Below are positions 37,054 through 55,128 of a DNA stretch of 55,128 nucleotides, piece by piece. The DNA comes from a virus (Duplodnaviria; Caudoviricetes), in the IMG/VR virus record IMGVR_UViG_3300034126_000032, positions 1-55,128 of that record; one strand, 5' to 3'. The notes under the pieces are model-generated. The model had not been told where the DNA came from. It saw nothing but the letters and a program-made list of their open reading frames with translations, and made no database searches. The position numbers and the translations under genes are program-made. Position 1 is the first letter of the stretch. The number at the start of each line of letters is the position of its first letter.

Positions 37054-37093
37054 CGCTACCGAGGTGCACACTGGGTGGTGGAGGTGGTGCCCG

Positions 37094-38845: not shown

Positions 38846-38851
38846 CTCCTG

Positions 38852-38881
38852 TTGACAACATACCAGCCATGCCGGTAACGT
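38852..38881 (+). promoter_or_regulatory. Sigma70 promoter for leaderless gene
   Basis: TTGACA-18nt-TAACGT, GTG 7 nt downstream. Confidence 0.7.
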
Positions 38882-38888
38882 TCAACCT

Positions 38889-39080
38889 GTGAAGCTAGTC
38901 GTATTCGCCGATTCCGACCCAGACGTGGCCATCACCTTCGCCTACACCACCGAAACACCCGGCCATACCAGAGGCTGGCACGGCACCTGCACCAACTGCG
39001 GCCAGACCGTGCATTCTTTCACCGAGGGCGCCGCGTTCACCACCGGCCAAACCCACGCCAACACCTGCGCCCAGCTCTAA
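38889..39080 (+). CDS. Small Zn-binding hypothetical protein
   Basis: CTNCG...H...C. Confidence 0.55.
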   Translation: MKLVVFADSDPDVAITFAYTTETPGHTRGWHGTCTNCGQTVHSFTEGAAFTTGQTHANTCAQL

Positions 39081-39100
39081 CCGAAACCACGAGGGACATA

Positions 39101-39730
39101 GTGAGTAACCACCGGCCCCGCACCGACCCCGGACCACCCATCCCCACCATCGTCTCCAGCGCCCTACTCACCCTTACCATCGCCGTCACCAGCGCATGGA
39201 TCATCCTCGGTGACGGCCCCACCGACGCCCGCCACATCGTCGGATTCCTCCTCGGAAACTGCCTGGCCGTCGTCACGTTCGCCCAGACCGTCATATGGGC
39301 GTCTGAACGTGCAACAGCCCAAGCCCGGATCCGCAGGTTCAAAGACCTCGAAGAATGCCAGGACCAGCAGCGCAAACTTCAAAGCTCGTGGGTGCGGTCG
39401 GAGAAATCCTTCGTGGGCCCCCACGCGACTGGTGTCGCACGGCCCGCAGCTAACCCCTGGGCCCGGCCAGTCACCGGGTACACCGGTGGTGACCGGACGG
39501 AACCGTGGGTGACAGCCCAGACTGAAGTGCTGCGCACCGACGGCAGGGCAGCCGAAACCCAGGTCCTGATCACCGGCGACGCTGTGCTGGTCACGGGCGA
39601 CGCCGCGACCGGGACCGAAACGCAGGTCCTGGCGACGGGCGGAGCGGCCGAAACGCAGGTGATGGTCACCGGTGAGGCAGCCGAAACGCAGGTGCTGGCC
39701 ACCCTGATGCCCACAGTCGATGAACACTGA
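39101..39730 (+). CDS. Membrane protein with C-terminal ETQV repeats
   Basis: Two TM segments; AAETQVL-type repeats. Confidence 0.6.
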   Translation: MSNHRPRTDPGPPIPTIVSSALLTLTIAVTSAWIILGDGPTDARHIVGFLLGNCLAVVTFAQTVIWASERATAQARIRRFKDLEECQDQQRKLQSSWVRSEKSFVGPHATGVARPAANPWARPVTGYTGGDRTEPWVTAQTEVLRTDGRAAETQVLITGDAVLVTGDAATGTETQVLATGGAAETQVMVTGEAAETQVLATLMPTVDEH

Positions 39731-40001
39731 CTGCGCTGTTCACAGCAAAACCATCGAAACCTTGCAAACCCAGATCGCAGCGTTGGAGACCAGTCTGGCC
39801 CGTACAGAGAACGCCCGGCTGGTCCTCTTTTACTTCCTCCTCGCCGTTGACGAGGCCATCCGGAACCAGCGCTCGGACACCACTACCCGGATGTTGTTCA
39901 CGTGGCTTACCCGGGCTAGCCGGAAAGTCCACGCAGCCCACACCCTGGCGTGGGCACCGGTCTGCAAACCCTCGGAAGGAGAAACATGTCCGCGTCCATA
40001 G
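39720..40001 (+). CDS. Hypothetical protein
   Basis: Overlapping operon ORF. Confidence 0.5.
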   Translation: MNTDCAVHSKTIETLQTQIAALETSLARTENARLVLFYFLLAVDEAIRNQRSDTTTRMLFTWLTRASRKVHAAHTLAWAPVCKPSEGETCPRP

Positions 40002-40165
40002 CCGCACGGCAAGCGGAAACCGCCCGGATCATCGCCGCGACCCGACCCTTCCGCACCCCCCAATGCCGGCGCTGCCTACGTTCTCTTGCCCTCGCCAACG
40101 GCCAACCACGGTGGGAAATCCTCCACCCATGGGGACTCGTCTGCCTCGAAAGGTGCCTGCCTTGA
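39986..40165 (+). CDS. Small Zn-finger-like protein
   Basis: GGAAGGAG RBS; CRRC...CLERC. Confidence 0.5.
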   Translation: MSASIAARQAETARIIAATRPFRTPQCRRCLRSLALANGQPRWEILHPWGLVCLERCLP

Positions 40166-40494
40166 CCACCGACACAGCCCCCACCCGCCCTCGACCACCC
40201 CGCCCTCGACCACCCCGCCCCGACCACCCCGCCCTAGGACAGCCGGCAGTGACTGATGACCTGGCGGAGCTAGCCCGGCTCATCACCGAATTGAACCGGG
40301 TCGCCGCACGCCTCTACACCACCCACCTCGCACCGCGGCACTGCGACGACTGCGGACGCCCCGAACAGTCCTGGCAACCTGTCCATGACCCGGCCGGGCG
40401 CATCACCGGGTGGCGTGGCCCTACCTGCGCCCGACGACGCGGCACCGGCGACCAGTTGCCTCTCGACTCTGAAGATACGGAGGTGACGTCATGA
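40162..40494 (+). CDS. Hypothetical Zn-finger-like protein with 15-bp repeat at 5' end
   Basis: CDDCGR...GPTCARR; CCGCCCTCGACCACC repeats. Confidence 0.45.
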   Translation: MTTDTAPTRPRPPRPRPPRPDHPALGQPAVTDDLAELARLITELNRVAARLYTTHLAPRHCDDCGRPEQSWQPVHDPAGRITGWRGPTCARRRGTGDQLPLDSEDTEVTS

Positions 40495-40563
40495 GCCTTG
40501 ACGGCTGCGGTGCGGCGGCCTCAGCACCTGAGATGCCCCCTCGATAACCGTAGACTGGCCAGC

Positions 40564-40875
40564 ATGGTGACCCCGGTGTGGCTACAACTCATCATCTACA
40601 CGCTGGCCGTCATGCGCATAACCGGCCTCACCGTCACCGACACGATCACCGAACCAGTCCGAGACGCACTCCTAGTCTGGTTAGACGACCGCCCGAAAAC
40701 CCTCGGTGCGTTCATCGCAGGCTTGATCAAATGCCCGTGGTGTGTGTCAATCTGGGTAGGCGGCATCACCGCACCCCTAGTCTGGGTTGCCGGCAACAAC
40801 CCGATCATGCTGATCCCAGCGCTTATGCTGGCTTTCAGCCAGGTCACTGGCATGACTCACACCCTGGGTAGGTAA
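40564..40875 (+). CDS. DUF1360 membrane protein
   Basis: RIT.L...DTITEPVR, LIKCPWCVSIW. Confidence 0.8.
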   Translation: MVTPVWLQLIIYTLAVMRITGLTVTDTITEPVRDALLVWLDDRPKTLGAFIAGLIKCPWCVSIWVGGITAPLVWVAGNNPIMLIPALMLAFSQVTGMTHTLGR

Positions 40876-40878
40876 ATC

Positions 40879-42852
40879 GTGGCGCTGAAACGACCCAAAC
40901 AAGTCGAGCCTGCCACCACCACACCCAAACCGTACGACCCGTTCGCAGCCGAGCACGTCCAACACCGCACCGCCCTCGCCGGTGCCACCGCTGTTGTCGA
41001 CCTCGGCGACAACTCCTCCTGGCGGACGTGGAAATTCGGCAACCGTGACTGGCAAGCCGAAGCGTGGCGCCTCTACGACATCATCGGTGAGCTGCACAAA
41101 CTGTCCGGCCGGGTCGGTGACTCCGTCGCCCAAGCCCGCCTGTACGTCACCGAAGTCGATCAGACCGGGGAAGAACAAGGCGAAGTCGAAGACGAAAACA
41201 TTCGCCGCCTCGCCGCGGTCCCCCTCGGCACCGGTAGCCAACGCGACGACAACCTCCGCCTAGCCGGGGTGGATTTGGCCGTCGGCGGGGAATGCTGGAT
41301 CGTCGGCGAGAACGCCGCCACCAACCCCGAGCAGGCCGAAGGTTCCTGGTTCGTAGTCACCGGTGCCGCCCTCACCCGCGAAGGCGCCCAGGTCAAAGTG
41401 CGTCGCCCGCAGCAACGCGGCGGGGCCAAACTCACCCTCACCGACGGTAAGGACATCCTCATCCGGTGCTGGCGTCCACACCCCAACGACACCGACCAAG
41501 CCGACAGCTTCACCCGCTCCGCCATCGTCCCCCTCCGCGAAATCGAGCTGCTCACCAAACGGGAGTTCGCCGAGCTCGACTCCCGGCTCACCGGTGCCGG
41601 AGTCTGGTTCCTGCCAGAGGGCATCGACTTCCCCCGCGCCGACAGTGACCCGGCCGGGATCGCCGGGTTCATGTCCTACATGCAACGTGCTGCCGCTGCT
41701 TCCATGGCAGACCAGGGTGTGGCATCCGCCATGGTCCCCATCATGGCGACCCTGCCCGACCAGATGATCGAACAACTCGACAAGATCAAACCGGTGAACT
41801 TCTGGTCCGAACTGTCCGCCGAAATCGGGCCGATGAAAGACAAAGCCATCGGCCGGGTCGCATCCATGGCGGAAATCCCCGCCGAAGTCCTCACCGGCAT
41901 CGGATCAACCAACCACTGGTCAGGATGGTTGATCTCCGAAGAGGGAATCCGCTGGATCCGCTCCTACCTCGGCCTCATCGCTGACGCCCTCACCCGCGGT
42001 TTCCTCCACCTCGCCCTAACATCCATGGGCGTCCCCAACCCCGAACGGTACGCGTTCACGTTCGACACATCTTCCCTGGCCGCTAAACCGAACCGGCTCG
42101 AAGATGCCCTACAGCTCCACGACCGGTTCTTACTCTCCGATGTTGAGACGGTCAAAGCCGGTGCGTTCGACATCGACGTCATGCCAACCATCCCAGACCG
42201 GGCCGCGCAAATTTTGCTGAAACTGGTCACCACCCAACCTGACCTCATCCTCGACCCAGCCGTCCAGCAACTCCTCGGGCTGCCGGCTGTGAAGAGTGTC
42301 GGTGTGCCTGCCACCGCCGGGCAGAACACGGATGGTATGGACCCGGCTGCTGACAGTCCGGCCGTGGACGGCCCACCCAACAACGGCACCATGCCTGATC
42401 AACCAGCCGACACAGGCTCAGCGCGGGCTATCACCGCCGCACTAGACCACCGGATCCGCGCGTTGACCGCCACCCGGGTGACTACCCCACCATCCCCACA
42501 GATGGTATTCAACGCCAGCGCGAAACTTATGGTGATGCGAGCACTCGAACTAGCCGGCGGACGCCTGACCACACCGCAGGAGCGACGCGGCCGGTGGGCT
42601 GACGTCCCACGCCACGAACTGCACCATCATGTCGGACCGATCACACCGGCGAAAGCCACCCAGGTAACCGCGGGTGCGTGGACCCACGTCGCCCTAGTGG
42701 CCTCAGACCTAGACGTCGACCCAGACGACCTCGGTGCGCTGCTATCCGGGTACGTACACGAGTTGTTAACCCGCGGTGTCCGCCACCACGATGATCTTTT
42801 GTACGCTGCATTGGCGGTCGCCAACCGGGGAAACGGGCTGGTGACAGCATGA
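40879..42852 (+). CDS. Portal protein
   Basis: WQAEAWRLYDIIGEL, RCWRPHP...ADS, GAGVWFLP, PAEVLTG..STNHWSGW. Confidence 0.85.
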   Translation: MALKRPKQVEPATTTPKPYDPFAAEHVQHRTALAGATAVVDLGDNSSWRTWKFGNRDWQAEAWRLYDIIGELHKLSGRVGDSVAQARLYVTEVDQTGEEQGEVEDENIRRLAAVPLGTGSQRDDNLRLAGVDLAVGGECWIVGENAATNPEQAEGSWFVVTGAALTREGAQVKVRRPQQRGGAKLTLTDGKDILIRCWRPHPNDTDQADSFTRSAIVPLREIELLTKREFAELDSRLTGAGVWFLPEGIDFPRADSDPAGIAGFMSYMQRAAAASMADQGVASAMVPIMATLPDQMIEQLDKIKPVNFWSELSAEIGPMKDKAIGRVASMAEIPAEVLTGIGSTNHWSGWLISEEGIRWIRSYLGLIADALTRGFLHLALTSMGVPNPERYAFTFDTSSLAAKPNRLEDALQLHDRFLLSDVETVKAGAFDIDVMPTIPDRAAQILLKLVTTQPDLILDPAVQQLLGLPAVKSVGVPATAGQNTDGMDPAADSPAVDGPPNNGTMPDQPADTGSARAITAALDHRIRALTATRVTTPPSPQMVFNASAKLMVMRALELAGGRLTTPQERRGRWADVPRHELHHHVGPITPAKATQVTAGAWTHVALVASDLDVDPDDLGALLSGYVHELLTRGVRHHDDLLYAALAVANRGNGLVTA

Positions 42853-43664
42853 CCGGTGAAATCTGGGACGGCGTCGGTGACGATCCGTGGTTGCCGCAGC
42901 GGTTGGAAGCCCGAGCTGAAACCGCCGCCGTGGAACGCAGCATCCGCGAAGCCGTATGGTCCGCACTGTCCGCATGGCTGGTAAAACTATCCCGCCGGGT
43001 GATCCGCGGAGACGCACCACCTAACCTGAGCGCCGTCTGGGCCTTGGCCCCACTCTGGCACGACGCCGTCGACATGATCATCCATGGTGAAATCCTCAAA
43101 GCCATCGGAGTCGCGTTCACCCGGGTCCTCGGCCCCGACTACCCGTTCGCCGCCAGGCCCGCCGTCGTCGCCCACTTGGCCGAAACCCGCAACCAGCTCG
43201 TACGCGTCCCCGACGAGGTATACGACCTCGTCGCCGGCGAAATCGCCCAAGGTGTGAACGTGGGCGAATCCATCCCGAAACTATCCGCCCGCATCGACGA
43301 AGTCCTGGCGACAGCAGGATCGGAACGCTGGTCGAACAGGGCCACCACCATCGCCAGATCCGAAACAATCTCAGCATTGAATGTGGGCCGCACCGACGCA
43401 TTCCAAGTCGTAGCAGACGACTCCGATGTACCAATGGAGATGCTTTGGATCGCCACCGACGACTCACGCACACGCCCAACCCACCGCATAGCCGAAGGCC
43501 AACGCGTCCCCGTAGGCCAACCCTTCATCGTCGGCGGCTACCCCCTCATGTTCCCCGGAGACCCACTCGGACCACCACAAGAGCGGATAAATTGCCGATG
43601 TGTCCCACTTTTGGTCGAAAAGGGCGAAACGGTGGACATGACCAACCGGCAGATGAGGAGATAG
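42849..43664 (+). CDS. MuF-like phage minor head protein
   Basis: RATTIARSE, WIATDDSRTRPTH, PGDP.GP..ERINCRC. Confidence 0.9.
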   Translation: MTGEIWDGVGDDPWLPQRLEARAETAAVERSIREAVWSALSAWLVKLSRRVIRGDAPPNLSAVWALAPLWHDAVDMIIHGEILKAIGVAFTRVLGPDYPFAARPAVVAHLAETRNQLVRVPDEVYDLVAGEIAQGVNVGESIPKLSARIDEVLATAGSERWSNRATTIARSETISALNVGRTDAFQVVADDSDVPMEMLWIATDDSRTRPTHRIAEGQRVPVGQPFIVGGYPLMFPGDPLGPPQERINCRCVPLLVEKGETVDMTNRQMRR

Positions 43665-43671
43665 CCCCAAC

Positions 43672-44430
43672 ATGGCCAATCTGCTCTGCGCCAAGCCCCT
43701 CCAGGGAAGTACCGTGCGCGTCACCATGCTCGACGCATGCGGTAACCCGCTACTCACCGAATGCGCTTACGCTGTCAGCGACGGTTTCGTATCCGTCACG
43801 CTCACCCCGAACGTAGACGAAGGCGAACGACTCTACGTTCGCAACTCCGACGGAGAACCGGTAATCAACCAGCGGGCCAAACCAAACCTCAACTGGTACG
43901 ACATTAGCCTGATATTTCAGGAGGTGGACTTTGAACTGTTCACCACCCTGACCGGGCTACTACCCAACGAGGACGACCTAGGACGCACCACCGGTTTCCT
44001 GGTCACTGAATCACGTTACGGAACCGGTAGCTTCGCCCTCGAAGTATGGATGGGCAACGCAGAAGAAGAATGCGCCCCCGGTGATGTTCTCCCATTCCAC
44101 GGCTACAACCTCCTCCCCTGGGTGGTAGAAGGTTCACTATCCGGAGACATCACCATCACGAATGATCTGATCACGTTCACTGTCACCGGCCGAACACGCA
44201 ACGGCACCTCCTGGGGGGTTGGCCCATACGATGTGGTACTCGACACCCTCGGCACCCCATCCCCCCTGTTCACCGCCATCCCGATAGACACGCATCACCT
44301 ACCGATTTGGACCCAACTAGCCCCACCAGCACCGGCGTCTTGCGGATGCCCTGCAGCGCTACCCGCCGGACTGCTCTACCCCGCACTAGACCTCTACCCC
44401 GCACTCAACCTCTACCCGATCGGAGCCTAA
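43672..44430 (+). CDS. Major tail protein paralogue with C-terminal LYP repeats
   Basis: Colinear and highly similar to 1041-1733; extra LYPALDLYPALNLYP. Confidence 0.8.
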   Translation: MANLLCAKPLQGSTVRVTMLDACGNPLLTECAYAVSDGFVSVTLTPNVDEGERLYVRNSDGEPVINQRAKPNLNWYDISLIFQEVDFELFTTLTGLLPNEDDLGRTTGFLVTESRYGTGSFALEVWMGNAEEECAPGDVLPFHGYNLLPWVVEGSLSGDITITNDLITFTVTGRTRNGTSWGVGPYDVVLDTLGTPSPLFTAIPIDTHHLPIWTQLAPPAPASCGCPAALPAGLLYPALDLYPALNLYPIGA

Positions 44431-44434
44431 CCCC

Positions 44435-46039
44435 ATGGCCTACACAAAACAGACATGGGCAAATGACATCGTCGGTGGGACACCCATATCCGCAGCCAGG
44501 CTCAACCACATCGAAAACGGCATCGAAAACGTCGACGTGGAAGCAGCCGTCAACGTCAAAAGCCCCCGATTCGCCGGCGGGGCAAAAGGCGACGACGCGA
44601 CAGACGACTCAGCGGCGATCCAAGCAGCCATCACCTACGCCGCAACTCTAGGCGACCCCGACACCCCAGGCGCAACCGTGTTCTTCCCCCCAGGAACCTA
44701 CCGGATAGGAACCACCTGCAACGTGCCCTCATCCGTGCGGTTACTCGGCGCCGGACGCGAAGCGACTACAATCCGGCGTACCGCCAACGTGTCCGTATTC
44801 ACCTTCCACGGCACCGACACACCAACCCGAAACTGGTACTGCGCACTAGAACACATGACCTTCGCCGGCGGCGACTTCAGCGCATCATGCCTCGACTTCG
44901 TATACGTGTCACAGTTCCAAATGGACCACGTGTCAGCCTACGCATGTACCGGCTCATTCCTAGACCTGACCGAAGTATGGGACTCATCATTCTCGAACGT
45001 CTTCACCGACTGGGTAGGATCTGGCACCCACCCGGCAATATGGATCCGCAACAGTCGGGCAACATCAGGATTCGGCTACTCATCAGACAACTCGAACCAA
45101 CTGAAATTCCTCAACCTACACTGCGAAACATTCCCCGGCACCGCAATCCGGATCGAATCAGGAACAAACAACACCGCCCCACCAAACGGTATCTACTTCA
45201 ACGTAGTCAAATGCGAATCATCACAAGTAACAACCCCATACCCATTCATTTACATTTCAGCGGAATGTCGAGGAGTGTACTTCGACAAAGTTTACTGCTC
45301 CGTCAACGCATTCGCAGCCGGATCATCAACCGGAATCAACGTAATCGAAAACAACTCCAACGGGCAAGTATCTCTCACCAACATCATGATCGCGTCAGCA
45401 AACGTCACACCCACGCTCGTCGACGCAGGAATCCAAATCAACACAACCGGGGTAGCATCACTCACCACCGTCAACAACGTCATCGGCGACTTCGGCCAAC
45501 CACCCATCTCCGGCCTAATCCGTGTACCCGGGGCAGGCGGACTCCACCTCGATCACCTCAACTGCGACAACGGCACGTTAATATCAGGCTTCGAAATGGA
45601 AGTCCAACAACGGATGCTGACCCTCCCCGCCGACATCACCACCACATCCACAACAATCGTCGACATGGCCGGACTGAAATTCTGGGACGCGCAAGAAGGC
45701 ACCTACACCCTAACATTCGAAGGCATATACCAATCCAGTGTCAACACTGCCTACCCGCGCATAGGATTCGGCGGAACAGCCACCACCACCACCCCAATCA
45801 TCGGCCGGGTCACAAACCACACCTCTACAACCGCAAGCACAACAGGCGTCATCACAGCAGCCAACACCGGGCACACCGGCGCCAACGCATCCGCCGCCAC
45901 AACCAACTACCAGATCTCCGGATGGTTCACATTCACCGTGACCGCCCCAGGCGCCATCGTCCTACGCTGGTACGCGTCAACCGCATCTACCCAGACGATG
46001 CTCGGCGGATCATGGGCACTCCTAGCCCGCAGCAAATAG
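44435..46039 (+). CDS. Beta-helix (pectate lyase 3-like) tailspike/depolymerase
   Basis: MAYTKQTW...PISAARLNHIENGI anchor; GAKGDDATDDSAAIQAAI, VFFPPGTY. Confidence 0.85.
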   Translation: MAYTKQTWANDIVGGTPISAARLNHIENGIENVDVEAAVNVKSPRFAGGAKGDDATDDSAAIQAAITYAATLGDPDTPGATVFFPPGTYRIGTTCNVPSSVRLLGAGREATTIRRTANVSVFTFHGTDTPTRNWYCALEHMTFAGGDFSASCLDFVYVSQFQMDHVSAYACTGSFLDLTEVWDSSFSNVFTDWVGSGTHPAIWIRNSRATSGFGYSSDNSNQLKFLNLHCETFPGTAIRIESGTNNTAPPNGIYFNVVKCESSQVTTPYPFIYISAECRGVYFDKVYCSVNAFAAGSSTGINVIENNSNGQVSLTNIMIASANVTPTLVDAGIQINTTGVASLTTVNNVIGDFGQPPISGLIRVPGAGGLHLDHLNCDNGTLISGFEMEVQQRMLTLPADITTTSTTIVDMAGLKFWDAQEGTYTLTFEGIYQSSVNTAYPRIGFGGTATTTTPIIGRVTNHTSTTASTTGVITAANTGHTGANASAATTNYQISGWFTFTVTAPGAIVLRWYASTASTQTMLGGSWALLARSK

Positions 46040-46094
46040 CCCATCAACCGGCAGATGCGCAAACCCCGGTAACCTAGGCAGAAGGAGGAACACC

Positions 46095-47522
46095 ATGGGC
46101 ACACAATTCCGGACAATGCTCGCACCCATCGGCCCATCCACCGGGGACGGCCGCCGATTCGCCGAAGGCGGCATCCACCTCGCCGACGTCCCATTCCCCC
46201 TCGAATGGGCACGATCCCGCGAAGGCGGCCACGACGGAGCCGTACCCGTAGGAGCAGTCCAACAAGCCGCCATCCTCACCGTCGACGAAGCCCTCACCCA
46301 AGGATACGTATCAGCCGACGCCGCCAAATACCTTGACCCCACCACGACCGCCGTATGGGCAAAAGGCGAAATGTTCGACGACGCTAACCGCGAAGAAATG
46401 CCCCGGATGGCGGAGGATGTTGCGGAGGCAATGCACCTTATGGGTGCCGGAACCCTCGGTCCTTCCGTCGATTTGGACTCGTTTGAGGGTTCTCCGGTAA
46501 TGGCTGGTACCGATGTGCCGGTCACGTGGGAAATGGTTGAGGAATATCAGGTTGAGCATGGTGAGGAACCGAAGCTGGAATTGTTGATCACTGAGGGTCG
46601 GGTTCGTGCGGCGACCCTTGTGTCAATTCCGGCGTTCGCGGAAACGTCCCGTCCGTTGGAGTTGATTGTCCCCGAGCAGGAGCCGATCCCGGCGGATGGT
46701 GGGCAAGGTGGCAGCGTGGCGGCCCTGATCGCCAGCACAGCAACCGCGGCCCGCCCGGATGTGGACGCGTTCACCCTGCCCGCCCTGGACCGGCCGACCC
46801 CGATCACCTGGGACTGGGACACCGGACGGGTGTACGGGCACATCGCGACGTGGCAAACCTGCCACGTCGGCTACGCGGATGTGTGCGTCACCGCACCCCG
46901 CGACGCATCCGGCGGGTATGCGGCGTTCAACCGGTTCCCGGTCGACACCGCTGACGGTGGCACTGTGTGGGCCGGCAGGATCACCGTCGGCGGCCGGCAC
47001 GCCGGACTGGACCTCACCGCATCCTCCGCCATGGCCACCTATGACACGAAAACGGTGGCCGCGCACGTCCGCGCGTACGAGGACGAGTTCGGGATTGTGG
47101 TGGCCGGGGTCATCGAGCTCGCCGAGGATGCCCCGGAGCGGGCTGTGCTGGAGCGGCGGAAGGTGTCGGGTGATTGGCGGGAAACCCCGGACGGGCTCAG
47201 CCTGCTCGAGGTGTTGGCGTTGTCTCCTGGGCCGCGTGCGCACGCGGAGCCGGGGTTCCCGGTCACGTTCAGCCGCCAGGGTCGCCAGGTTGCTTTGACC
47301 GCGGCGTTCGGCCCCGACCCGAACCCGGATGCCGGTGTCACGGTCCGGGCTGCTGTTGACGTGGACGCCCTCGCCGCCGCACTCGAACAGCGGCAAGCTG
47401 AGCGTGCCAAGGCCGCCCAGGCACGCGCCGGCCTCGCCGCCGCCATCAGGGTCACAGCAGACCTGGAACGGGCATCCCTCGCCACCATGGTGGGACGATG
47501 GACTTTGATCTGGGCGACATGA
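46095..47522 (+). CDS. Capsid maturation protease / scaffold-associated protein
   Basis: TGDGRRF, GPSVDLD, ATLVSIPAF, GRVYGHIA..TCH, SGDWR; GAAGGAGG RBS. Confidence 0.75.
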   Translation: MGTQFRTMLAPIGPSTGDGRRFAEGGIHLADVPFPLEWARSREGGHDGAVPVGAVQQAAILTVDEALTQGYVSADAAKYLDPTTTAVWAKGEMFDDANREEMPRMAEDVAEAMHLMGAGTLGPSVDLDSFEGSPVMAGTDVPVTWEMVEEYQVEHGEEPKLELLITEGRVRAATLVSIPAFAETSRPLELIVPEQEPIPADGGQGGSVAALIASTATAARPDVDAFTLPALDRPTPITWDWDTGRVYGHIATWQTCHVGYADVCVTAPRDASGGYAAFNRFPVDTADGGTVWAGRITVGGRHAGLDLTASSAMATYDTKTVAAHVRAYEDEFGIVVAGVIELAEDAPERAVLERRKVSGDWRETPDGLSLLEVLALSPGPRAHAEPGFPVTFSRQGRQVALTAAFGPDPNPDAGVTVRAAVDVDALAAALEQRQAERAKAAQARAGLAAAIRVTADLERASLATMVGRWTLIWAT

Positions 47523-47665
47523 TCGCCTCGTTCAACATTCGGATCAAACAGCACCACCGGCACCAGGCGATCTGGCATGTTGGTGTGGCTGTCGAACACG
47601 GCCTGACCGGCCGGGCCACCAACCCGTCACCGGTCACATTTCACACAGGGAAAGCGAGCATCATC

Positions 47666-47992
47666 GTGGATCTTCAGGCTGACAAGCAGGTACCCCTCAG
47701 TGTCACGTTCACCGATGAGATGGGTAACCCGGTCACAGCGCCGGAGAAGCCCCTCACCGTGTTCACCGTCGACGACCCGGCGATTATCGCTTTGACGGAC
47801 AACCTTGACGGCACTGCTGTCGCTGCGGCGGTTGGTCCGCTCGGCACCGCCAACGTGCATGTCTCTTCCCTGGTCGGCGGCAACGAACTGACCGGTGACC
47901 TTGCCATCGTCGTTGTCGAAGGCCTCGCGGAGCGGATCACCGTGACCGCCGGCGAACCAGTCGAGGTCACCCCCGACACTGTTCCCCTCTGA
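47666..47992 (+). CDS. Small Ig-like (beta-rich) putative virion protein
   Basis: FTDEMGNP, VGPLGTANV; GTG start after GGAAAG. Confidence 0.5.
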   Translation: MDLQADKQVPLSVTFTDEMGNPVTAPEKPLTVFTVDDPAIIALTDNLDGTAVAAAVGPLGTANVHVSSLVGGNELTGDLAIVVVEGLAERITVTAGEPVEVTPDTVPL

Positions 47993-48000
47993 GATCCGCG

Positions 48001-48633
48001 GTGGCTTTCCGTTTCGTGGTCACCGGTGCCGGCCGGTGTGAGACCGCCTGGATGGCTCAGGCGTTTTCCCACGCCGGTGTGCCGTGCGGCACTGGGCAGG
48101 TGTTCAACAGTGAACCTGATCCGGTTTGGCCGGAGGGTTTGCGGGCGGACTCGTCATGGTTGGCCGCCACCCGCACGGACAAGATCGATGTGCCGGTGGT
48201 GTTGTTGGTGCGTCACCCGATGGTCGCGGTCCGGGACCTGTCCGAGTCCGGGTTTTTCGCCGAGCACGGACGCACCAACAACCCCGGTCACACTCGGCTG
48301 GCCGCCGCGTTCCCCGCCGTGTACGAGCATGTGACTGTGCGGGACCAGGCGTTGCAGATGTGGGTGTCCCTGACCAGGGCTGCCCTGGGCCGGGCGGAGC
48401 TGGTCGTGCGGGTGGAACAACTCGACGCCGGCCTGTTCGGTCGTATCCTCGGTTGGGCTGGTGCCGACCCTGGTATGGCGTCACAGGTTTTGGCCAGCAA
48501 CTGGGTGTGTGATCAGCATGAGGCTGTGTTCGAGCCGGACTGGGATTTGCATAGTCTGATTTTGCGGCGTCAGGCTAGGGAGTTGGCTGCCACACTCGGG
48601 TACCCTGAACTGGGAGGGCTGACCTATTTGTAA
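48001..48633 (+). CDS. Sulfotransferase-like protein
   Basis: FVVTGAGRCET (5'-PSB-like), DSSWLA, LLVRHP (3'-PB-like), RVEQL. Confidence 0.6.
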   Translation: MAFRFVVTGAGRCETAWMAQAFSHAGVPCGTGQVFNSEPDPVWPEGLRADSSWLAATRTDKIDVPVVLLVRHPMVAVRDLSESGFFAEHGRTNNPGHTRLAAAFPAVYEHVTVRDQALQMWVSLTRAALGRAELVVRVEQLDAGLFGRILGWAGADPGMASQVLASNWVCDQHEAVFEPDWDLHSLILRRQARELAATLGYPELGGLTYL

Positions 48634-48772
48634 CTGCGGGAAGAATAAGACGCGGGGCGCGTATGTGGTGAAACTGCCCGGCGGCCTGACTGTGCCGAAG
48701 TCCAGCGAGCAAGCTGCTGTGGCGTTCGCGGCGAAGCATCCCGGTGCGACAGTGATCAAACCGGGCACCTGA
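48626..48772 (+). CDS. Small CNCG-motif protein (48 aa) with apparent ATT start
   Basis: GGAGG RBS, ATT TGT AAC TGC GGG...; in-frame TGA two codons upstream. Confidence 0.5.
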   Translation: MCNCGKNKTRGAYVVKLPGGLTVPKSSEQAAVAFAAKHPGATVIKPGT

Positions 48773-48810
48773 TGGTGGTGGTCCCGGGACGGGTGACCCG
48801 GGACGTGATG

Positions 48811-48840
48811 GGGGCCCCGAGCTGTGTGCTCGGGGCCTCC
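48811..48840. terminator. Hairpin GGCCCCGAGC/GCTCGGGGCC, copy 1
   Basis: Perfect 10-bp stem between convergent genes. Confidence 0.7.
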
Positions 48841-48883
48841 TGGTTGCTCTCATGCTGGTAGTCGCGCAGGATATCCATCGGGT

Positions 48884-49570
48884 TCATGACGCTGCCCCAC
48901 TGAGGAATGCTCGTCCGATGTACTCGGCGTACGCCGGCGGGATGGCCTCGGTCAACTCTTCACGCTCCGACGTCCAATCTATCCCCAACGCGTGCTGCAT
49001 CTCCGCAACCGTGGCTTTACCGCCACCAGAACCGTACGCAGCCACGTACGGCCCCTCTCGCAGCACGCCGTGCCGCATCCCACGGACGTAACCACGGTGC
49101 TTGATATGGATGGGCTGTGGCACGGTGAAGCCGTTGATCTCGAAGTCCCTGTGCCGCTGCACCCATGGCGGATCTCCGACCGGGAACATATCCATGCAGA
49201 GCCGCAGATCGGTCCGGATCAGACCGCCGTGACCGCTCGGTTGTTCAATAACGTACGGCCGACCGGTCACGGCGAGCAACTTACGCACGACGGGAACCAA
49301 CTGCTCGTGCTCTCGGCCCCACCCGTTCGCCTGATTCGTGCCGTTGGTCAGAGTGCAACCCGCCTGACACGGCGGGGACGCGTGCGCCACGGCGAACCGC
49401 GACAGGTCTGCGTTGGACAGGAAGCCGATTGCGTCTGCCTGAATGAACTCGTCTCCGCAGTAGTCGGGACGTGGCACGATGTCGACTCCGGTGACGTGGA
49501 AACCTGCCTTTTGGTAGCCGCGCGTGGCACCACCCGAACAGCAGAACAGATCGAGCAGTCGGGGATTCAT
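48884..49570 (-). CDS. DNA cytosine-C5 methyltransferase (short phage type)
   Basis: LLDLFCCSGG, GVDI, HASPPCQ, YVIEQP, RHRDFE, EAIPPAY. Confidence 0.85.
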   Translation of the reverse strand: MNPRLLDLFCCSGGATRGYQKAGFHVTGVDIVPRPDYCGDEFIQADAIGFLSNADLSRFAVAHASPPCQAGCTLTNGTNQANGWGREHEQLVPVVRKLLAVTGRPYVIEQPSGHGGLIRTDLRLCMDMFPVGDPPWVQRHRDFEINGFTVPQPIHIKHRGYVRGMRHGVLREGPYVAAYGSGGGKATVAEMQHALGIDWTSEREELTEAIPPAYAEYIGRAFLSGAAS

Positions 49571-49629
49571 ATCCGAACCTCTCCGGCGGAAACCGCTGGC
49601 CCGCCTGTGAAGTGTCAAGGGTGGGGTAC

Positions 49630-49806
49630 ACGAAAGAGGCCCGAATCCTGGCGGGGATCCGGGCCTCAGTCCCCACCAGGCCTCAACGGATGCGCAGGGC
49701 ACGGCCTGGTCGGGACTTGCTTGCTATACCCGCGGCGCGAGTTATTCGCCGTCTCCGCGGGGAGTCAGGCAAACCCTTCGGATTATTTCTACCTATCTCG
49801 CCTGAC
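49630..49806 (-). ncRNA. Candidate four-hairpin small RNA
   Basis: Consensus promoter upstream, three contiguous stems, then terminator hairpin + UUUC. Confidence 0.6.
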
Positions 49807-49813
49807 AGGACAA

Positions 49814-49842
49814 ACACTACAGGCGTGGCGGGGAAGTGTCAA
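49814..49842 (-). promoter_or_regulatory. Sigma70 promoter of the sRNA candidate
   Basis: TTGACA-CTTCCCCGCCACGCCTG-TAGTGT, near-identical to promoter at 36619. Confidence 0.75.
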
Positions 49843-49864
49843 CGGGAGGTGTCCGTGGGCACGG

Positions 49865-49902
49865 AGAAGGGCCCCGAGCGGGCGTGCTCGGGGCCCTTTT
49901 CT
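49865..49902. terminator. Hairpin GGCCCCGAGC/GCTCGGGGCC, copy 2
   Basis: Same stem as 48813-48837, followed by TTTT. Confidence 0.7.
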
Positions 49903-50059
49903 GCTGCCGCGCTAAATCCCGGTAGCGCGGCGCGCCGGTAGATCAAACCCGGGCCGGGGGTGGCAGGGTGATCGGTTAGAAACTGAGCGGCCGTACGGGT
50001 GCGTCAACACCCTGTCCGGCCTAGCTCCAGTCCGCGACGACGGAAGGAGCCTTACCCCC

Positions 50060-50116
50060 ATGGTCCCAGAAGCAGCCTGCACCGTCACGGCCGACACCCC
50101 GACGGCCAGTGCCTGA
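50060..50116 (+). CDS. Leader peptide (18 aa) coupled to second Rep-like gene
   Basis: GGAAGGAG RBS, ATGGTCCCA start, TGATG overlap. Confidence 0.5.
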   Translation: MVPEAACTVTADTPTASA

Positions 50117-50550
50117 TGACCGGCGAAGAGCCGCGCACCGAAAGCGCCGCCACCCACGGCAACAAAATGCTCAGCCGTTGGAACGGACTCATCCGGCGCG
50201 CCCGCATCGGCCACCAGATCAAAGGGACCGCACTCACCGTCAGCTCGTACGCCGACAACGACGGCACGAGCATCCGGTGCGGGGTCACCCGCCTCGCCGT
50301 CGACTGCGAGATCGGCTACAGCACCGCCCGCCGGCACCTCGCCTGGCTACGCGACGCCGGCCTCCTGGAGCTGGTACGCGCGGGCAACCACAAAGCGGGA
50401 CGCGCCGACGAGTACCGGCTCATCATCGCCCCCGCCGTCTATGAACGTCTCAACATTCCGGACGACGAAACGTACCGAAAGTTGATCGAGGACATGAACC
50501 AGGTGAACCGGTCCGGTCAGAAGATCCGCCGGCTATCAGCGCTCACCTGA
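50116..50550 (+). CDS. Second Rep-like wHTH protein (short)
   Basis: YADNDG, RLAVDCEIGYSTARRHLAWLRDAGLL, ADEYRL. Confidence 0.7.
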   Translation: MTGEEPRTESAATHGNKMLSRWNGLIRRARIGHQIKGTALTVSSYADNDGTSIRCGVTRLAVDCEIGYSTARRHLAWLRDAGLLELVRAGNHKAGRADEYRLIIAPAVYERLNIPDDETYRKLIEDMNQVNRSGQKIRRLSALT

Positions 50551-50640
50551 GCGAGCGCTGATACTACGGATCCAACGAGGGCTATTAGCGCTCACCTGGG
50601 TGAGCGCTAATAGGGGCTATCAGCGCTCACCCAGGTGAGC
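50531..50640. repeat. Three palindromic iteron/operator-like repeats
   Basis: GGCTATYAGCGCTCACC at 50531, 50580, 50615, each followed by an inverted arm. Confidence 0.8.
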
Positions 50641-50943
50641 CCCCACCTCTCAGTAAGAACTACCTCCCACTGGGGGCACGCTGCCCCCAGACCCCCTGCG
50701 ACCCCGACCCCCTCCTACGTCGGGGGTCGGGACCTGCGAGCGAAACTCACCCTCCGAGGCCGCCCACTCAACGCCCTGGGCTTTCAGCGCAACCCACTCC
50801 CGCGCGAGAAGCCGCGCACCGAACAGCCGATGACATTCGACCTGAACAGACCGCACCCGGTGTACGATCATGGCGAAACCCCGGCGTCAGGTCTCGGTCC
50901 GGCTGGAGTCAACCAAAAACAGACTCACAAAAGGACGGACCCC

Positions 50944-52653
50944 ATGTTCCCGTTCGACATCCCCGAAGACCTGACCACGCTCGCCGCGGCCGACTTCGCG
51001 GCGTTCACCGCGCAGGTTCGGGCGTTCGCCCAGACCACCCTCGACACTGACGACGCGACCGCGGAACTGTTGGTCGCGACCCGTGAGCTGTTCGCCACCG
51101 TCGCCACCGAGGAAACCCGGCGTACCGACCTGGCCGCCGCGGGCACGACTGCGCGTACCGAGCTGGCCGCCGGGCTGGCGCCCGCCCTTGAGCCGGAGCC
51201 GGTCGCGGTTGCCCAGCCTGCCCCCGCCGCCGCCCCCGCCGCCCCCGCCCCGGCCGCCGCCCCCGCCCCCGCCCCGGTCACAGCGCTCAGCACCATCGAC
51301 CCCACCCCTGAGGTACCCGCCGAGACGTACGCCGTCATGGTCGCCAGTGCGGATGCACCCGGCGCCGGTGGGGAACTCGCCAGCTTCTCCGACGTCGGTG
51401 CCCTCCTCGAGCGGCGCATGTCCGGATACTCGACCAGCACCCGCCGCAACGGCACCAAAACTGATCTCGGTCGCGGCCGGTTCAAGATCGGCGGGCAGTC
51501 CCTCACCCGCCACGGCGGCGCGCAGATCATCCGCCAGTTCCCCGAAAACCTGCGCATCACCGACGGCAAAGACCCCGGCACGGTCCTCGACTACGCCACG
51601 TCCGAGAAGCGTCTGCCCGGCGGATCGTTGATCAACGCAATGACAGCGTCAGTCACCGCCGGCCGGTCCCTGACCGCCGCCGTCGGCTGGTGCGCCCCGA
51701 GCGAAACCATCTACGACCTGTGCGCCCTGGAAACCATGGATGGCCTCTTGGACATCGCCGAGGTCCAAGCGACCCGCGGCGGGTTCTTCGTCCCCGCGAA
51801 CGGCGGCCCCAACTTCAGTACCATCTACGATTCCATCGGTGATGACGGTGATGTGATCCTCACCGAGTACGCGGTGGAGAACGGCACCGAGAAAGTCTGT
51901 GTGGAGATCCCGTGCCCGGACTTCGAAGAGGTCCGCCTGGATGTGGCGTACGTATGTATCACCGGGTCGCTGTTGCAGCGCCGGGGTTACCCGGAGGCGG
52001 TCACCCGGTTCACGCAGGGTGCCATGGTCGCCCTCGCCCATAAGGTCAACGAATCGGTGATCGCGAGGATTGTTGCCGGGTCTGGTGCCCCGGTCGTGAT
52101 TACCGCGGACCCGTCCGGTGACGACGCCGCCAGCGCCCTCCTCTCCGCTGTCGAGCTCGGGATTGAGGACATGCGGTATCGCAACCGCATGGGCCGCACC
52201 ACCACCGTCGAGGTTGTCCTTCCCGCGTGGGTTGTTGCACCGATCCGCGCCGCCCTCGCCCGCCGTACCGGTGTCGCCGCGATCAACGTGACCAACGCTG
52301 ACATCCTCGCCGCGTTCACCACCCGCGGCGCGGTCCCTCGCTTCGTCTATGACTGGCAAGACGCGTACTCCGGTCTCGCCGGCGGCCCGGGCGCGCAGGC
52401 GGCGATCACCCGTTGGCCGCTCACCGTGAAGTTCCTGGTGTACCCGGCGGGCACCTGGGTCAAGCCGGTCCGCGACGTCGTCAACCTCGACACCGTGTAC
52501 GACAACGCCCTGCTGACCACGAACCAGTACACGGCCCTGTTCTTGGAGGACGGGTTCAACGTGCTGAAGATGTGCGCCGACAGTCGCCTGTACACGGTGC
52601 CGATCGACGTCTCTGGCGTCGTGGCTTGCTGCCCGAGCCAGTACACATCCTGA
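50944..52653 (+). CDS. Major capsid protein with N-terminal scaffold-like region
   Basis: SLTAAVGWCAPSETIYD, KVCVEIPCPDF, LQRRGYPE, YDWQD, YPAGTWV, NQYTALF. Confidence 0.9.
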   Translation: MFPFDIPEDLTTLAAADFAAFTAQVRAFAQTTLDTDDATAELLVATRELFATVATEETRRTDLAAAGTTARTELAAGLAPALEPEPVAVAQPAPAAAPAAPAPAAAPAPAPVTALSTIDPTPEVPAETYAVMVASADAPGAGGELASFSDVGALLERRMSGYSTSTRRNGTKTDLGRGRFKIGGQSLTRHGGAQIIRQFPENLRITDGKDPGTVLDYATSEKRLPGGSLINAMTASVTAGRSLTAAVGWCAPSETIYDLCALETMDGLLDIAEVQATRGGFFVPANGGPNFSTIYDSIGDDGDVILTEYAVENGTEKVCVEIPCPDFEEVRLDVAYVCITGSLLQRRGYPEAVTRFTQGAMVALAHKVNESVIARIVAGSGAPVVITADPSGDDAASALLSAVELGIEDMRYRNRMGRTTTVEVVLPAWVVAPIRAALARRTGVAAINVTNADILAAFTTRGAVPRFVYDWQDAYSGLAGGPGAQAAITRWPLTVKFLVYPAGTWVKPVRDVVNLDTVYDNALLTTNQYTALFLEDGFNVLKMCADSRLYTVPIDVSGVVACCPSQYTS

Positions 52654-52718
52654 TCATCACGGGTGGCCCGGTCACACGGTCCGGGCCACCTGACCTCACC
52701 TGAGGAGGTGGTCAAGAC

Positions 52719-53810
52719 GTGGCCCTAACACCAGGAACGGTTGTCCCCGCCCCGGTGCAAATCCGGCAACGGTACGGCCTGTTCACCGCCGCCCGCCCCC
52801 TGGATTTGCCTGTACGCGGCCAAGGCGGCGGCATCCGGTTTGTTCCCGTGTGCGGTGAGTCGTACGCGTACGGGGTGATGTGCTACGAACCAGGGGAACA
52901 CCCGATCAAACCCCTCGACTCCGATGCCGCTGAGGTTCAGTCCGGGGTGTTCGCCGTATTCGCCACCCTCAACTGCGGGGCCGTCGGCTACACCGCCACC
53001 GAATACCGGGCCAAGGTCCGCAACATCCTCGAAGGATCGGAGCAGGCCGCAGTTGAGGCAGCCCTGTTCTCCGGCCTCGACTTCCAAGGCACCACCCTCA
53101 ACACCCTGTCACTCAACACCGAGGCTGTTGACATCCCCACCGACTACGACCCCGGATCCATTGCCGACGTCATCGGCGCCCTGGAACGGTACGCATACGG
53201 CACCCACCAGTACACAGGTGTCGCATACATTCACGCACCCGTAGAAGTGGCCGCTGCCGCCGCAGCCCAAGCCGGGCTGATCATCCAGGACGGCCCCCGC
53301 AAAACCACACCCCTCGGGTCGGTGTGGGTGTTCGGTAACTACCCGGCAGGCCAAATCGTCATCACCGGCCAAACCACCGTGTGGCGGGCCCCGGACATCC
53401 AAATCTACGACTCGTTCGACACGGTCACCAACGAAATGACCCTGGTAGCTGAAAGACCATACGCGGCCGCGTTCGAATGTTTCGCCGGCCGGGCGGACTT
53501 CGCCCTCCCCGACATCCCAGGCCCGACCGTGCCAGTCGAACTGACCGTGCTAACCGGGGCAGACCAGGTGGTCTCCGCCTACCCAGTCTTCTACCAAGGT
53601 TTCACCCTGGTAGAAACGTCCGGCACCGCCGGCGCCCTAGTCCGCATTTATGACAACGCATCAGCCCCATCGGGCACCATCTTGGGCCTGGTTTCTCTTT
53701 CCCCGTTCGGGTCGGACCGGGAGTACTACTACCCAGGCCTCATGGCCCAGCACGGCATCTACGTTGACGTGGTGTCCGGTGCCATTTCCGGAAGCGTGAG
53801 GACGGGCTGA
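52719..53810 (+). CDS. Capsid-associated (minor capsid/decoration) protein, copy 1
   Basis: RYGLF, EQAAVE, LVAER motifs; directly after MCP; GAGGAGG RBS. Confidence 0.65.
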   Translation: MALTPGTVVPAPVQIRQRYGLFTAARPLDLPVRGQGGGIRFVPVCGESYAYGVMCYEPGEHPIKPLDSDAAEVQSGVFAVFATLNCGAVGYTATEYRAKVRNILEGSEQAAVEAALFSGLDFQGTTLNTLSLNTEAVDIPTDYDPGSIADVIGALERYAYGTHQYTGVAYIHAPVEVAAAAAAQAGLIIQDGPRKTTPLGSVWVFGNYPAGQIVITGQTTVWRAPDIQIYDSFDTVTNEMTLVAERPYAAAFECFAGRADFALPDIPGPTVPVELTVLTGADQVVSAYPVFYQGFTLVETSGTAGALVRIYDNASAPSGTILGLVSLSPFGSDREYYYPGLMAQHGIYVDVVSGAISGSVRTG

Positions 53811-54916
53811 TGACAATCGTTCCCGGAACAATCGTCCCCGCCCCGGCGCAGATCCGCCACCGGTACGGGCTACTCGACGCAGCATCCGGACCACTAGACC
53901 TGCCCGCGCATGGTGAAGGCGGAGGTGTCCGGTTCGTCCCACAAACGTGCGGTGAGTCGTACGCGTACGGTGTTGCCTGCTACGGGCCTGGTGAAGCCCC
54001 GATCAAACCCCTCGACGGTGATGCCGCTGAGGTTCATACCGGTGTGTTCGCTGTCATCTCCACCCTGAACTGCGGGGCGCCTGGTTACACCGTGGGTGAG
54101 TACCGGGCCAAAGTCCGTAACATCCTCGAAGGTACCGAGCAGGCATCCGTTGAGCATGCGCTGTGGTCGGGCCTGGACTCCAGTAGCACCGCACTGGACA
54201 TCCTCAACCTGAACACCGAGGCCGTGGCGGTCCCGGCCGGCTACGACCCGGGATCCATCGCCGACGTTGTGGGAACCCTGGAACGGTATGCGTACGCCAC
54301 CCACCAATACGGGGGTGTGGCATACATTCACGCACCGGTTGAGGTGGCGGCGCTCGCCGCGGAGGAAGGCCTCGTCCACCAGGACGGCCCCCGCAAAGTC
54401 ACCCCACTCGGCAGCGTGTGGGTATTCGGTGACTACCCTGCGGGCGAGATCATCATCACCGGTCAGGTCACCATCTGGCGGGCCCCAGACATTTCGGTAT
54501 ACGACTCGTTCGACACGACCACTAACGAACGCCTACTCGTAGCAGAGCGGGCGTATGCGGTCGCGTTTGAATGTTTCGCAGGCCGGGCTAGTTACAGTCC
54601 GCCTGATATTCCACCAGCGGGAAGTGTCCCTGGTGAGACGGTTCCGGTCGCTATGACCGGATCAGACCAGGTGATCACTGCTACCGCCGGAGTTTTCTAC
54701 CAGGGATTCACCTTGGCTGAAACGTCCGGTACAGCCGGAGCGTTGGTGCGGATTTACGACAACGCGGCAGCCCCAGCCGGCACCCTGCTCGACATTGTGT
54801 CCCTGTGCATCTCCGAGTCAGCCCGCGAGTACTACTACCCGGGCATCCCAGTCCAGCACGGCATCTACCTAGACGTCGTATCCGGTGCTGTTAGTGGAAG
54901 TGTGAGGACAGCCTGA
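53810..54916 (+). CDS. Capsid-associated protein, tandem paralogue copy 2
   Basis: Full-length similarity to 52719-53810; TGATG coupling. Confidence 0.65.
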
Positions 54917-55128
54917 TGGGCAGCTCAGGATCCTGCGGTATCCCCGCCAGCATTGTCGACGCCAAAGGCGATCTGATTGCGGCTACCGGAGCTGACACCG
55001 TGGCCCGCCGATCCGTCGGTGCGGACACGCAGGTGTTGACCGCGGACTCCACGCAGGCCACGGGGGTGAAGTGGGCGGCCGCCGGCGTATCCGCGTCCTT
55101 GGTTGATGCTAAGGGTGACCTCATTACT
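54916..55128 (+). CDS. 5' part of fibre gene continuing at window start
   Basis: TGATG overlap; [20 protein letters not shown]... open to the window end. Confidence 0.8.
55044..55128. repeat. Terminal direct repeat, copy 2
   Basis: Identical to 1-85. Confidence 0.9.

Follow-up and report, generated by a model that had tools for sequence, protein, structure and literature searches.

A compact unit of about 280 bp, consisting of a promoter, a defined start, four hairpins and a terminator, precedes a DNA methyltransferase (MTase) gene on the minus strand of the phiAsp2-like soil actinophage genome analysed here (called the window: 55,128 bp with about 64% G+C, which form a complete IMG/VR virus record and carry direct terminal repeats). 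Our leading reading, which we hold tentatively and consider quite possibly correct, is that this is a genuine non-coding unit which arose by promoter recombination and came to serve an acquired MTase gene as constitutive leader and partial terminator, yielding a stable RNA of about 175 nt. On this reading, the host RNA polymerase with its principal sigma factor would initiate at the G at 49806 from a conserved phage promoter, and the nascent RNA would fold hairpin by hairpin into four independent stem-loops (H1 to H4). H1 would sequester the 5' end and might in this way protect the RNA against 5'-end-dependent decay. H4 would end some of the transcripts, giving a stable RNA of about 170-180 nt, and the transcripts reading through it would be the sole mRNA of the MTase. 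Acting in cis, the element would be a leader that throttles the MTase constitutively, with no ligand- or protein-controlled switch. We infer this cis role and the partial termination; the anatomy of the locus, on the other hand, can be read directly.

Layout, promoter and fold of the locus

The major head protein of the window is 76.5% identical to its counterpart in the Actinoplanes phage phiAsp2, and the closest cellular relatives of the MTase, with 64-74% identity, are found in four Actinoplanes/Paractinoplanes genomes. For these two reasons the host of the phage is probably a member of the Actinoplanes group. The region around the RNA is a variable leftward island within the head-gene region; in phiAsp2, six leftward genes separate the protease-like gene from the head gene. 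The features of the window used below are as follows.

36619-36647, plus strand: second full promoter copy in the genome, 25/29 identical, with a leaderless ATG at 36655
46095-47522, plus strand: portal / head-maturation-protease protein (PHROG family match)
After the portal/protease gene, plus strand: Ig-like protein, then a 210-aa protein
48884-49570, minus strand: DNA methyltransferase, 228 aa (phrog_363, E 3e-34; DLFCCSGG and PPCQ motifs)
49571-50115: non-coding gap of 545 nt between the MTase and Rep-like genes
49578-49584, minus strand: Shine-Dalgarno sequence GGAGAGG of the MTase, 7 nt before its ATG at 49570
49605-49618, minus strand: truncated family promoter, 5' half, TTGACACTTCACAG (20/29 matches, all in the first half)
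49636-49667, minus strand: hairpin 4 (13 bp, loop CCGCCA, -25.4 kcal/mol), continuing with UUUCGUGU to 49628
49668-49717, minus strand: hairpin 3 (15-bp interrupted stem, 20-nt loop, -31.1 kcal/mol), inverted repeat I2
49761-49729, minus strand: hairpin 2 (-16.7 kcal/mol); the module with its 3' flank ending AAGUCCC spans 49712-49763
49764-49806, minus strand: hairpin 1 (10-bp stem closing the 5' end, 23-nt A/U-rich loop, -14.1 kcal/mol)
49806, minus strand: transcription start G, the 8th nt after the -10, predicted from the ATG spacing of the family
49814-49842, minus strand: promoter P1 (-35 TTGACA at 49842-49837, 17-nt spacer, -10 TAGTGT at 49819-49814)
49863-49907, plus strand: hairpin with a good U-tract adjoining P1 upstream, inverted repeat I1 with 16-nt arms
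From ATG 50116, plus strand: Rep-like winged-helix protein of 144 aa (phrog_270, E 1.1e-5; weak similarity to replication initiators)
50531-50647: three copies of a 33-nt palindromic repeat, after the Rep-like gene
50635-52653, plus strand: major head protein

We take the MTase to be of the C5-cytosine type. The RNA, which runs from 49806 to 49630, would be transcribed away from the Rep-like gene, which starts at 50116 on the other strand, and here we agree with an earlier account of this DNA (the sequence-only reading). The plus-strand hairpin just upstream of P1 suggests a stop for plus-strand transcripts that would otherwise run antisense through the RNA and the MTase gene. This arrangement resembles that in the relatives described below, where the hairpin-2 module likewise opposes the late operon.

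The promoter proposed in the sequence-only reading, TTGACA-17-TAGTGT with 7 nt to hairpin 1 on the minus strand, was confirmed by reading the sequence. The spacing had been likened to that at the leaderless ATG at 36655, and indeed the near-copy at 36619-36647 on the plus strand has this ATG exactly 7 nt on. The name of consensus promoter stands in part: P1 is credible and is a member of a family, but its -10 is of the actinobacterial TANNNT type and not TATAAT. An E. coli-style scan called no promoter in 48500-50700; a scan of this type misses P1 because TAGTGT agrees with TATAAT at just three positions.

The family was collected by scanning the window and the related loci L019-L099 with the 29-nt P1 query, accepting at least 20/29 matches. 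It has 96 distinct sites in the window and the related loci, or 107 when duplicates and further loci are counted, and is defined by TTGACA, 17 nt with a conserved spacer, and TAnnGT, with the start 7-8 nt downstream. TTGACA is present at 85/96 sites, and the -10 is TAATGT, TAAGGT, TAAAGT or TAACGT at 86/96; the TAGTGT of P1 is found at a single one of the 96. At 13 sites an ATG follows the -10 at a distance of 7 nt, and at another 5 the distance is 6 nt. As these leaderless ATGs fix the start point of the family, we place the start of the RNA at G 49806, and a purine occupies the predicted start position in 88 of the 96 sites. When the region was compared by blastn with the loci around the head gene of relatives, the matches fell precisely on the promoter, at several places per locus. 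The relatives share a syntenic copy that stands immediately before the capsid gene on the other strand and drives their leftward island; about 30-37 nt of leader, which includes a Shine-Dalgarno sequence, separate this copy from the first island gene (L022, 4942; L040, 4697; L057, 4879). By comparison with this family, P1 is to be regarded as a genuine promoter. One related contig, L029, has a promoter truncation comparable to that of the window. The 29-bp promoter family, with its fixed start and 96 sites, may be more useful than the RNA itself, as it can guide the annotation of leaderless genes and non-coding units in phiAsp2-like phages.

RNAfold of 49806-49630 reproduced exactly the four hairpins that had been described, and folding at 11 transcript lengths gave four independent hairpins throughout. 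The minimum free energy is -91.8 kcal/mol, compared with -68.0 +/- 4.2 for shuffled sequences (z -5.71), and none of the 200 shuffles was as good. Among 4398 windows of 177 nt from the same genome (mean -67.1, sd 12.0), the RNA ranks 73rd, in the top 1.7%; the fold is less exceptional against its own background because the genome is G+C-rich. The plus strand folds at -83.2 kcal/mol (z -3.78), which is 8.6 kcal/mol worse, because three G-U pairs are present on the minus strand only.

This difference between the strands favours a minus-strand RNA over a palindrome acting at the DNA level. We considered the latter as an origin, operator array or cruciform for the Rep-like winged-helix protein, in view of the position of the hairpins in the 545-nt gap beside the Rep-like gene, a phrog_270 member at E 1.1e-5, and of the fact that the palindromes exist in DNA too. 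The gap holds no iterons, however: its direct repeats are promoter halves only, and the repeat D1 consists of two such halves bracketing the RNA. The four stems are also mutually unrelated, and the 33-nt palindromic repeat in three copies at 50531-50647 provides much better candidate sites. A DNA-level element is in our view very improbable.

The absence of a credible open reading frame, as stated in the sequence-only reading, was borne out by GC content by codon position, which gives no coding frame from 49571 to about 50100-50115. The only local open reading frames (44, 35 and 109 aa) had no match in a PHROG search, and the 44-aa frame begins within the -10 of P1. The loop of H1 contains a Shine-Dalgarno-like GAAGGG that is unused, with no usable start codon behind it. 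In its first bases and the CGAAGGG, H1 resembles the short leaders that follow the syntenic promoter copy of the relatives. Judged by its sequence, the RNA locus forms a self-contained non-coding transcription unit, running from a credible promoter and a defined start to a terminator; we infer the transcription itself, together with the 3' end, abundance and stability of the RNA. The public sequencing runs that contain the stretch are of DNA (X1, probably the source run, and X2), and X2 covers only parts of the MTase and Rep-like genes, not the RNA.

Terminator hairpin and methyltransferase gene

The call of a terminator at H4 was also upheld, as H4 plus TTTCGTGT was scored as terminator-like with 13 pairs, 9 of them G-C, and a loop of 6, and it is the strongest terminator-like site in 36000-55128. 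The U-tract after H4 has 5 T in the next 8 nt, with three contiguous U followed by CGUGU. Because this tract is short, termination at H4 is probably partial. From the behaviour of mycobacterial RNA polymerase, partial termination is expected at a short U-tract like UUUCGUGU.

Hairpins like H4 were looked for by DNA search in 301 genomes of the family of Actinoplanes couchii (G062), and five matches were inspected. The same GGATCC-CCGCCA-GGATCC core stands directly after stop codons at two loci (L240 and L243), and a third (L241) has, behind the 3' end of a tRNA, a related hairpin that differs in its loop; these three are 81 to 91% identical to the window over 33 to 47 nt. Matches of 20-47 nt to the H3/H4 part were found in 17 of the 301 genomes, and no full-length relative of the RNA in any of them; four Actinoplanes-group genomes likewise gave short H3/H4 matches only. 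By these matches, H4 is to be seen as an intrinsic terminator that resembles those of the likely host family.

The MTase gene starts at the ATG at 49570, 7 nt behind its Shine-Dalgarno sequence. A start at the in-frame GTG at 49702, inside H3, was rejected, since alignments with the relatives start within residues 1-5 and the coding signal sets in at 49570. Between H4 (49640) and 49571, the 70 nt before the MTase ATG, there is no TANNNT -10. The truncated promoter in this interval is made up of the first 14 bases of the family promoter, and the similarity ends there. As the MTase has no -10 of its own, its mRNA would have to be read through H4 from P1, unless a promoter of an unrecognised type serves it. 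If termination at H4 were efficient, the MTase would be nearly silent, which fits poorly with its intact frame. Read-through of a terminator is a plausible route by which the phage may set the dose of its acquired MTase.

Attenuation of the MTase, which the sequence-only reading had listed among the possible roles, survives in one respect only, namely that the MTase must be read through H4. A regulated attenuator or riboswitch, in which SAM, SAH or a protein decides between termination at H4 and read-through, is suggested by the position of the RNA between promoter and MTase gene with the terminator directly before the gene. Its mechanism would involve a competing antiterminator, but the 5' arm of H4 has no alternative pairing at any of the 11 transcript lengths, and it stays largely unpaired when the 3' arm is blocked in a constrained fold. 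No riboswitch family was matched in 49400-50100 even at E up to 10. The RNA is also absent at all 22 loci of MTase relatives (0/17 viral and 0/5 genomic loci have it upstream of the gene), the best blastn match of the RNA to the 17 viral loci having E 0.81, and the relatives of H2 have no MTase as neighbour. Regulated attenuation is accordingly rated as highly unlikely. The lack of a competing antiterminator and the absence of the RNA upstream of the MTase relatives are our reasons for describing the RNA, on its sequence, as a constitutive throttle of the MTase, not a switch.

Small RNAs derived from 5' leaders by premature intrinsic termination are known, and most of those described contain a ligand or protein sensor or else a competing antiterminator. 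The unit in the window is like them in its promoter, structured leader, terminator and read-through-dependent gene, and unlike them in that no sensor or antiterminator is predicted.

Known RNA classes and proposed replication-control targets

As the sequence-only reading requires, no Rfam 15 family reached its gathering score across the whole window. With the threshold relaxed to E up to 10, 49400-50100 gave 13 sub-threshold matches, the best of which within the RNA was Pxr, at 18.2 bits against 80. ctRNA_p42d was matched outside the RNA, at 49865-49907, by the plus-strand terminator (27.5 bits; gathering score 50). ARAGORN found no tRNA or tmRNA gene in the whole window.

A trans-acting immunity RNA of the P1 C4 and P4 CI kind had been suggested by analogy. 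There is no Rfam match for it, and the phage has no repeated complementary sites, so the suggestion is not supported. Like C4 and CI, the RNA is a small, structured, phage-encoded non-coding RNA. Those two RNAs are processed from longer immunity-operon transcripts, whereas the RNA of the window has its own start.

Replication control of the plasmid ctRNA or RNAI type had been another suggestion. The RNA resembles this type in that it adjoins a Rep-like gene and has the ctRNA_p42d look-alike near it. It does not overlap the leader of the Rep-like gene, however, and its duplex energies are ordinary. The proposed pairing with both Rep leaders (25403-25560 and 49960-50116) is not distinctive, since 21 to 63% of genome windows are at least as good; for 49960-50116, the energy was equalled or beaten by 50% of windows on the plus strand and 21% on the minus strand, by a crude measure that uses 157-nt windows and ignores intramolecular structure. 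Relatives of the Rep-like protein gave a single locus, L108, in which no similar RNA was seen upstream by eye.

Relatives of hairpin 2 and the origin of the unit

Only H2 with its 3' flank (49763-49712) has relatives. They are found in two IMG/VR phage contigs, L029 (= L112/L255) and L042 (= L110/L252), and in one metagenome contig, L182, almost the same in sequence as L029. A covariance model named R1, built from these same sequences that it scores, gives 53.6 bits for the window, 76.1 for L255 and L182, and 61.8 for L252. The model has 29 invariant columns among its 47 positions, and the flanks are unalignable. Covariation is not significant: one of 11 pairs is doubly changed (C-G to U-A) in the three lineages, and this was equalled by 106 and 133 of 500 shuffles in the two registers. 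The two outer pairs of the stem differ in register between lineages. We rejected three further ideas on H2: a tiny open reading frame within it, which is missing from the window and amounts to 6 codons in L042; a kink-turn or loop-E motif, for which reading gave no match; and GGGUAAGU as a decayed -10, which was unconvincing by reading.

In the relatives, the H2 unit is a non-coding stretch of the minus strand immediately downstream of a family promoter; it lies where two structural genes of the plus strand leave a gap, and these genes are homologues of 5003-5569 and 5946-6353 of the window. No MTase adjoins it and no gene follows it on its strand; in L042, a second promoter comes after it. 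The 5' end is closed by a stem of 8-10 bp in all three lineages, but with a different pairing partner: the stem encloses H2 in the relatives, while it lies before H2 in the window. The length of the cassette-bearing gap ranges from -12 to 1247 nt across 23 loci, 13 of which have a minus-strand family promoter at the edge. The equivalent gap of the window itself (5570-5945) has retained the second promoter and its hairpin alone.

The H2 module appears to be rare. A blastn search with 49560-49960 gave no match in 50,697 phage records, and against 99 related loci it matched the promoter only, apart from one 36-nt match to H2 in L029. A DNA search of 33 related whole virus records returned matches of 14-22 nt at most, and the H1 loop, H3 and H4 have no relatives in these 33 records or the 99 loci. 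The H2 pattern was present in three stretches of IMG/VR, namely the contigs of L029 and L042 and a chance match in a coding repeat; in metagenome contigs it was present in 103 stretches, with the promoter upstream in L182 alone. R1 found the two known matches in 49 related virus records, followed by nine at 18.3 bits or less. It found none in phiAsp2 (record G010) and no new member in 26 further gap loci. The best of the low matches, L218, is a plain terminator hairpin, and a 19-mer of the H1 loop had a single match in IMG/VR, to an A/T-rich phage, which we ascribe to chance.

These relatives bear on a different reading, in which the RNA of about 175 nt is a stand-alone small RNA that acts in trans by binding a host or phage RNA or protein and the read-through into the MTase is incidental. 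The single-stranded parts proposed for such binding are the H1 loop, an 11-nt linker and the H3 loop. The unit is complete from promoter to terminator, and H2 with a closed 5' end recurs in three other contigs, between structural genes of the opposite strand and with no downstream gene. In L042, where the next feature is another promoter, the order is the same as that of promoter, RNA and promoter fragment in the window.

To our knowledge, the non-coding RNAs of actinobacteriophages are barely charted, the best known being the Pleft RNAs of cluster A mycobacteriophages. Our literature search, which covered papers without their supplements, returned no paper on this RNA or on phiAsp2 promoters or RNAs. 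According to PMC5712189, Pleft of L5, D29 and StarStuff produces highly expressed, stable non-coding transcripts that are toxic to the host, and the cluster A Pleft RNAs have no conserved open reading frame and an unsettled function. These transcripts are a precedent for action in trans, in their suspected mode of action, and as described in the same paper they are the closest analogue of the RNA, both being non-coding and filling the space from a strong leftward promoter of host type to the first gene downstream. The Pleft region is described there as about 500 bp at the genome end, compared with about 175 nt inside the head-gene region here, and the abundance and stability of its RNAs were measured, while ours are predicted. 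In the search of 50,697 phage records with 49560-49960, no sequence similarity to the Pleft RNAs was seen.

Against action in trans, no target emerged: the longest perfect complementarity to the RNA elsewhere in the phage, by blastn-short, is 13 nt (E 0.11), and the pairing with the Rep-like leaders is ordinary, as given above. The H1 loop, linker and H3 loop, where a seed would be expected, show no conservation in the three relatives, and the covariation is not significant. Action in trans seems somewhat unlikely to us.

The same comparisons allow a reading as a recombination scar, in which promoter cassettes were shuffled and the hairpins are transcribed and inherited without a selected role. 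Several features would be accounted for in this way. The RNA starts like the syntenic island leader of the relatives, with a Shine-Dalgarno-like GAAGGG lacking a usable start codon; its H2 comes from a cassette which is at another locus in the relatives, and it has half a promoter at its 3' end. The comparable promoter truncation in L029 and the variable cassette gap in the 23 loci would fit as well, and the H1 loop, H3 and H4 are without relatives. A 10-bp partner for the extreme 5' end is improbable by chance, however, and this end is closed by different partners in the three lineages. Moreover, H2 holds its 29 invariant columns of 47 amid unalignable flanks, and the fold lies far below the shuffles. 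We consider it unlikely that the unit is such a scar.

Under our leading reading, as the constitutive leader of the MTase, the element would be a mosaic of the shared H2, two orphan hairpins, a promoter fragment, and the promoter and initial leader bases that belong to the leftward island. A mosaic of this kind suggests that recombination between promoter copies put the element together, and such copies may serve as joints for module exchange in these phages.

Finally, the H2 module may stand for a new family of actinophage non-coding RNAs that times the early-to-late switch, in trans on targets of host or phage or in a put-like manner on the polymerase that transcribes it, which we consider quite unlikely. 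The put RNAs of phage HK022 are promoter-proximal hairpins that make RNA polymerase terminator-resistant. By description they are like the present element, with stem-loops behind an early promoter and before a terminator and gene; they differ in that no gene follows the element on its strand in the H2 relatives. Read as such a family, the module would be transcribed from a conserved promoter of host type and would in every case oppose the late structural operon, and its link to the MTase would be a secondary capture. Its position would then be inside the late operon in the relatives and before the plus-strand terminator in the window.

Promoter family and a second candidate minus-strand unit

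The promoter family, built as TTGACA-17-TAnnGT, has spacers of two types in the window (49814-49842, 36619-36647 and 31331-31359) and in the loci L019-L099 of related phages. In the first type, the -35 and -10 elements are separated by a 14-bp palindrome (ACAGTCA/TGACTGT) which looks like an operator. The second type (CCCCGYCAYGCCTGT) is non-palindromic and is present in the two best promoter copies of the window, and the two types may represent two promoter classes under different regulation. Many of the transcripts from these promoters carry a short G+C hairpin at +1 (L020, L026, L033, L039, L044, L052, L053, L057 and others), and next in the same loci comes a leader of conserved sequence (GTTGAAAACTCCAGAGG, with variants) bearing a Shine-Dalgarno sequence (SD). 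Together, hairpin and leader may form a translational or stability element of the phiAsp2-like phage group.

The promoter copies also seem to be recombination joints. In L029, a related phage locus with the hairpin 2 module, the minus strand at 9918-9640 holds a second promoter without its -35 half, the place of which is taken by a second copy of the hairpin 2 motif GGCGGAGAAGGC. Compared with the window this is a mirror image: the -35 half is lost in L029, whereas the -10 half is lost in the window. A weaker copy of the promoter faces the late operon.

About 5931-5903, minus strand: weaker promoter-family copy, within the gap 5570-5945, with two plus-strand structural genes on either side

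After this copy comes a conserved hairpin (GGCCCCCGG...CCGGGGGC), which was also found in three related phage loci (L029, L034 and L042). The minus strand of the gap is a candidate for a second antisense or non-coding unit opposing the late operon.

Start and surroundings of the Rep-like gene

Two features were located next to the gene for the Rep-like winged-helix protein.

50060-50118: upstream ORF of 18 codons, ATG at 50060, with a strong SD (GGAAGGAG) in front
50531-50647: a 33-nt repeat present three times (GGCTATCAGCGCTCACCTGAGCGAGCGCTGATA, with variants), every copy palindromic in itself

The TGA stop of the short ORF overlaps the ATG of the Rep-like gene at 50116 (TGATG). Because the coding signal begins only at about 50100, the probable start of the gene is 50116 rather than GTG 49999, with coupling to the leader peptide. 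The repeat array lies between the end of this gene and the head gene, and it gives the strongest folding in the whole genome (-116 kcal/mol per 177 nt, minus strand). The repeats are candidate binding sites of the neighbouring Rep-like protein, as an origin or operator, or alternatively a terminator array.

Methyltransferase and hairpin 4-type 3' ends

With a threshold of E 0.01, Pfam gave no hit for the methyltransferase (48884-49570); it matched phrog_363 and contains the motifs DLFCCSGG and PPCQ, which we take to indicate the C5-cytosine type. At 228 aa it is short among such enzymes.

Hairpins with a GGATCC...GGATCC core, as matched by hairpin 4, occur repeatedly, with no U-tract behind them, at the 3' ends of genes in bacterial loci from the family of Actinoplanes couchii (L240, L241 and L243), and may be a common type of terminator or 3'-end stabiliser there. 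The loop CCGCCA is common to L240, L243 and the phage hairpin 4.
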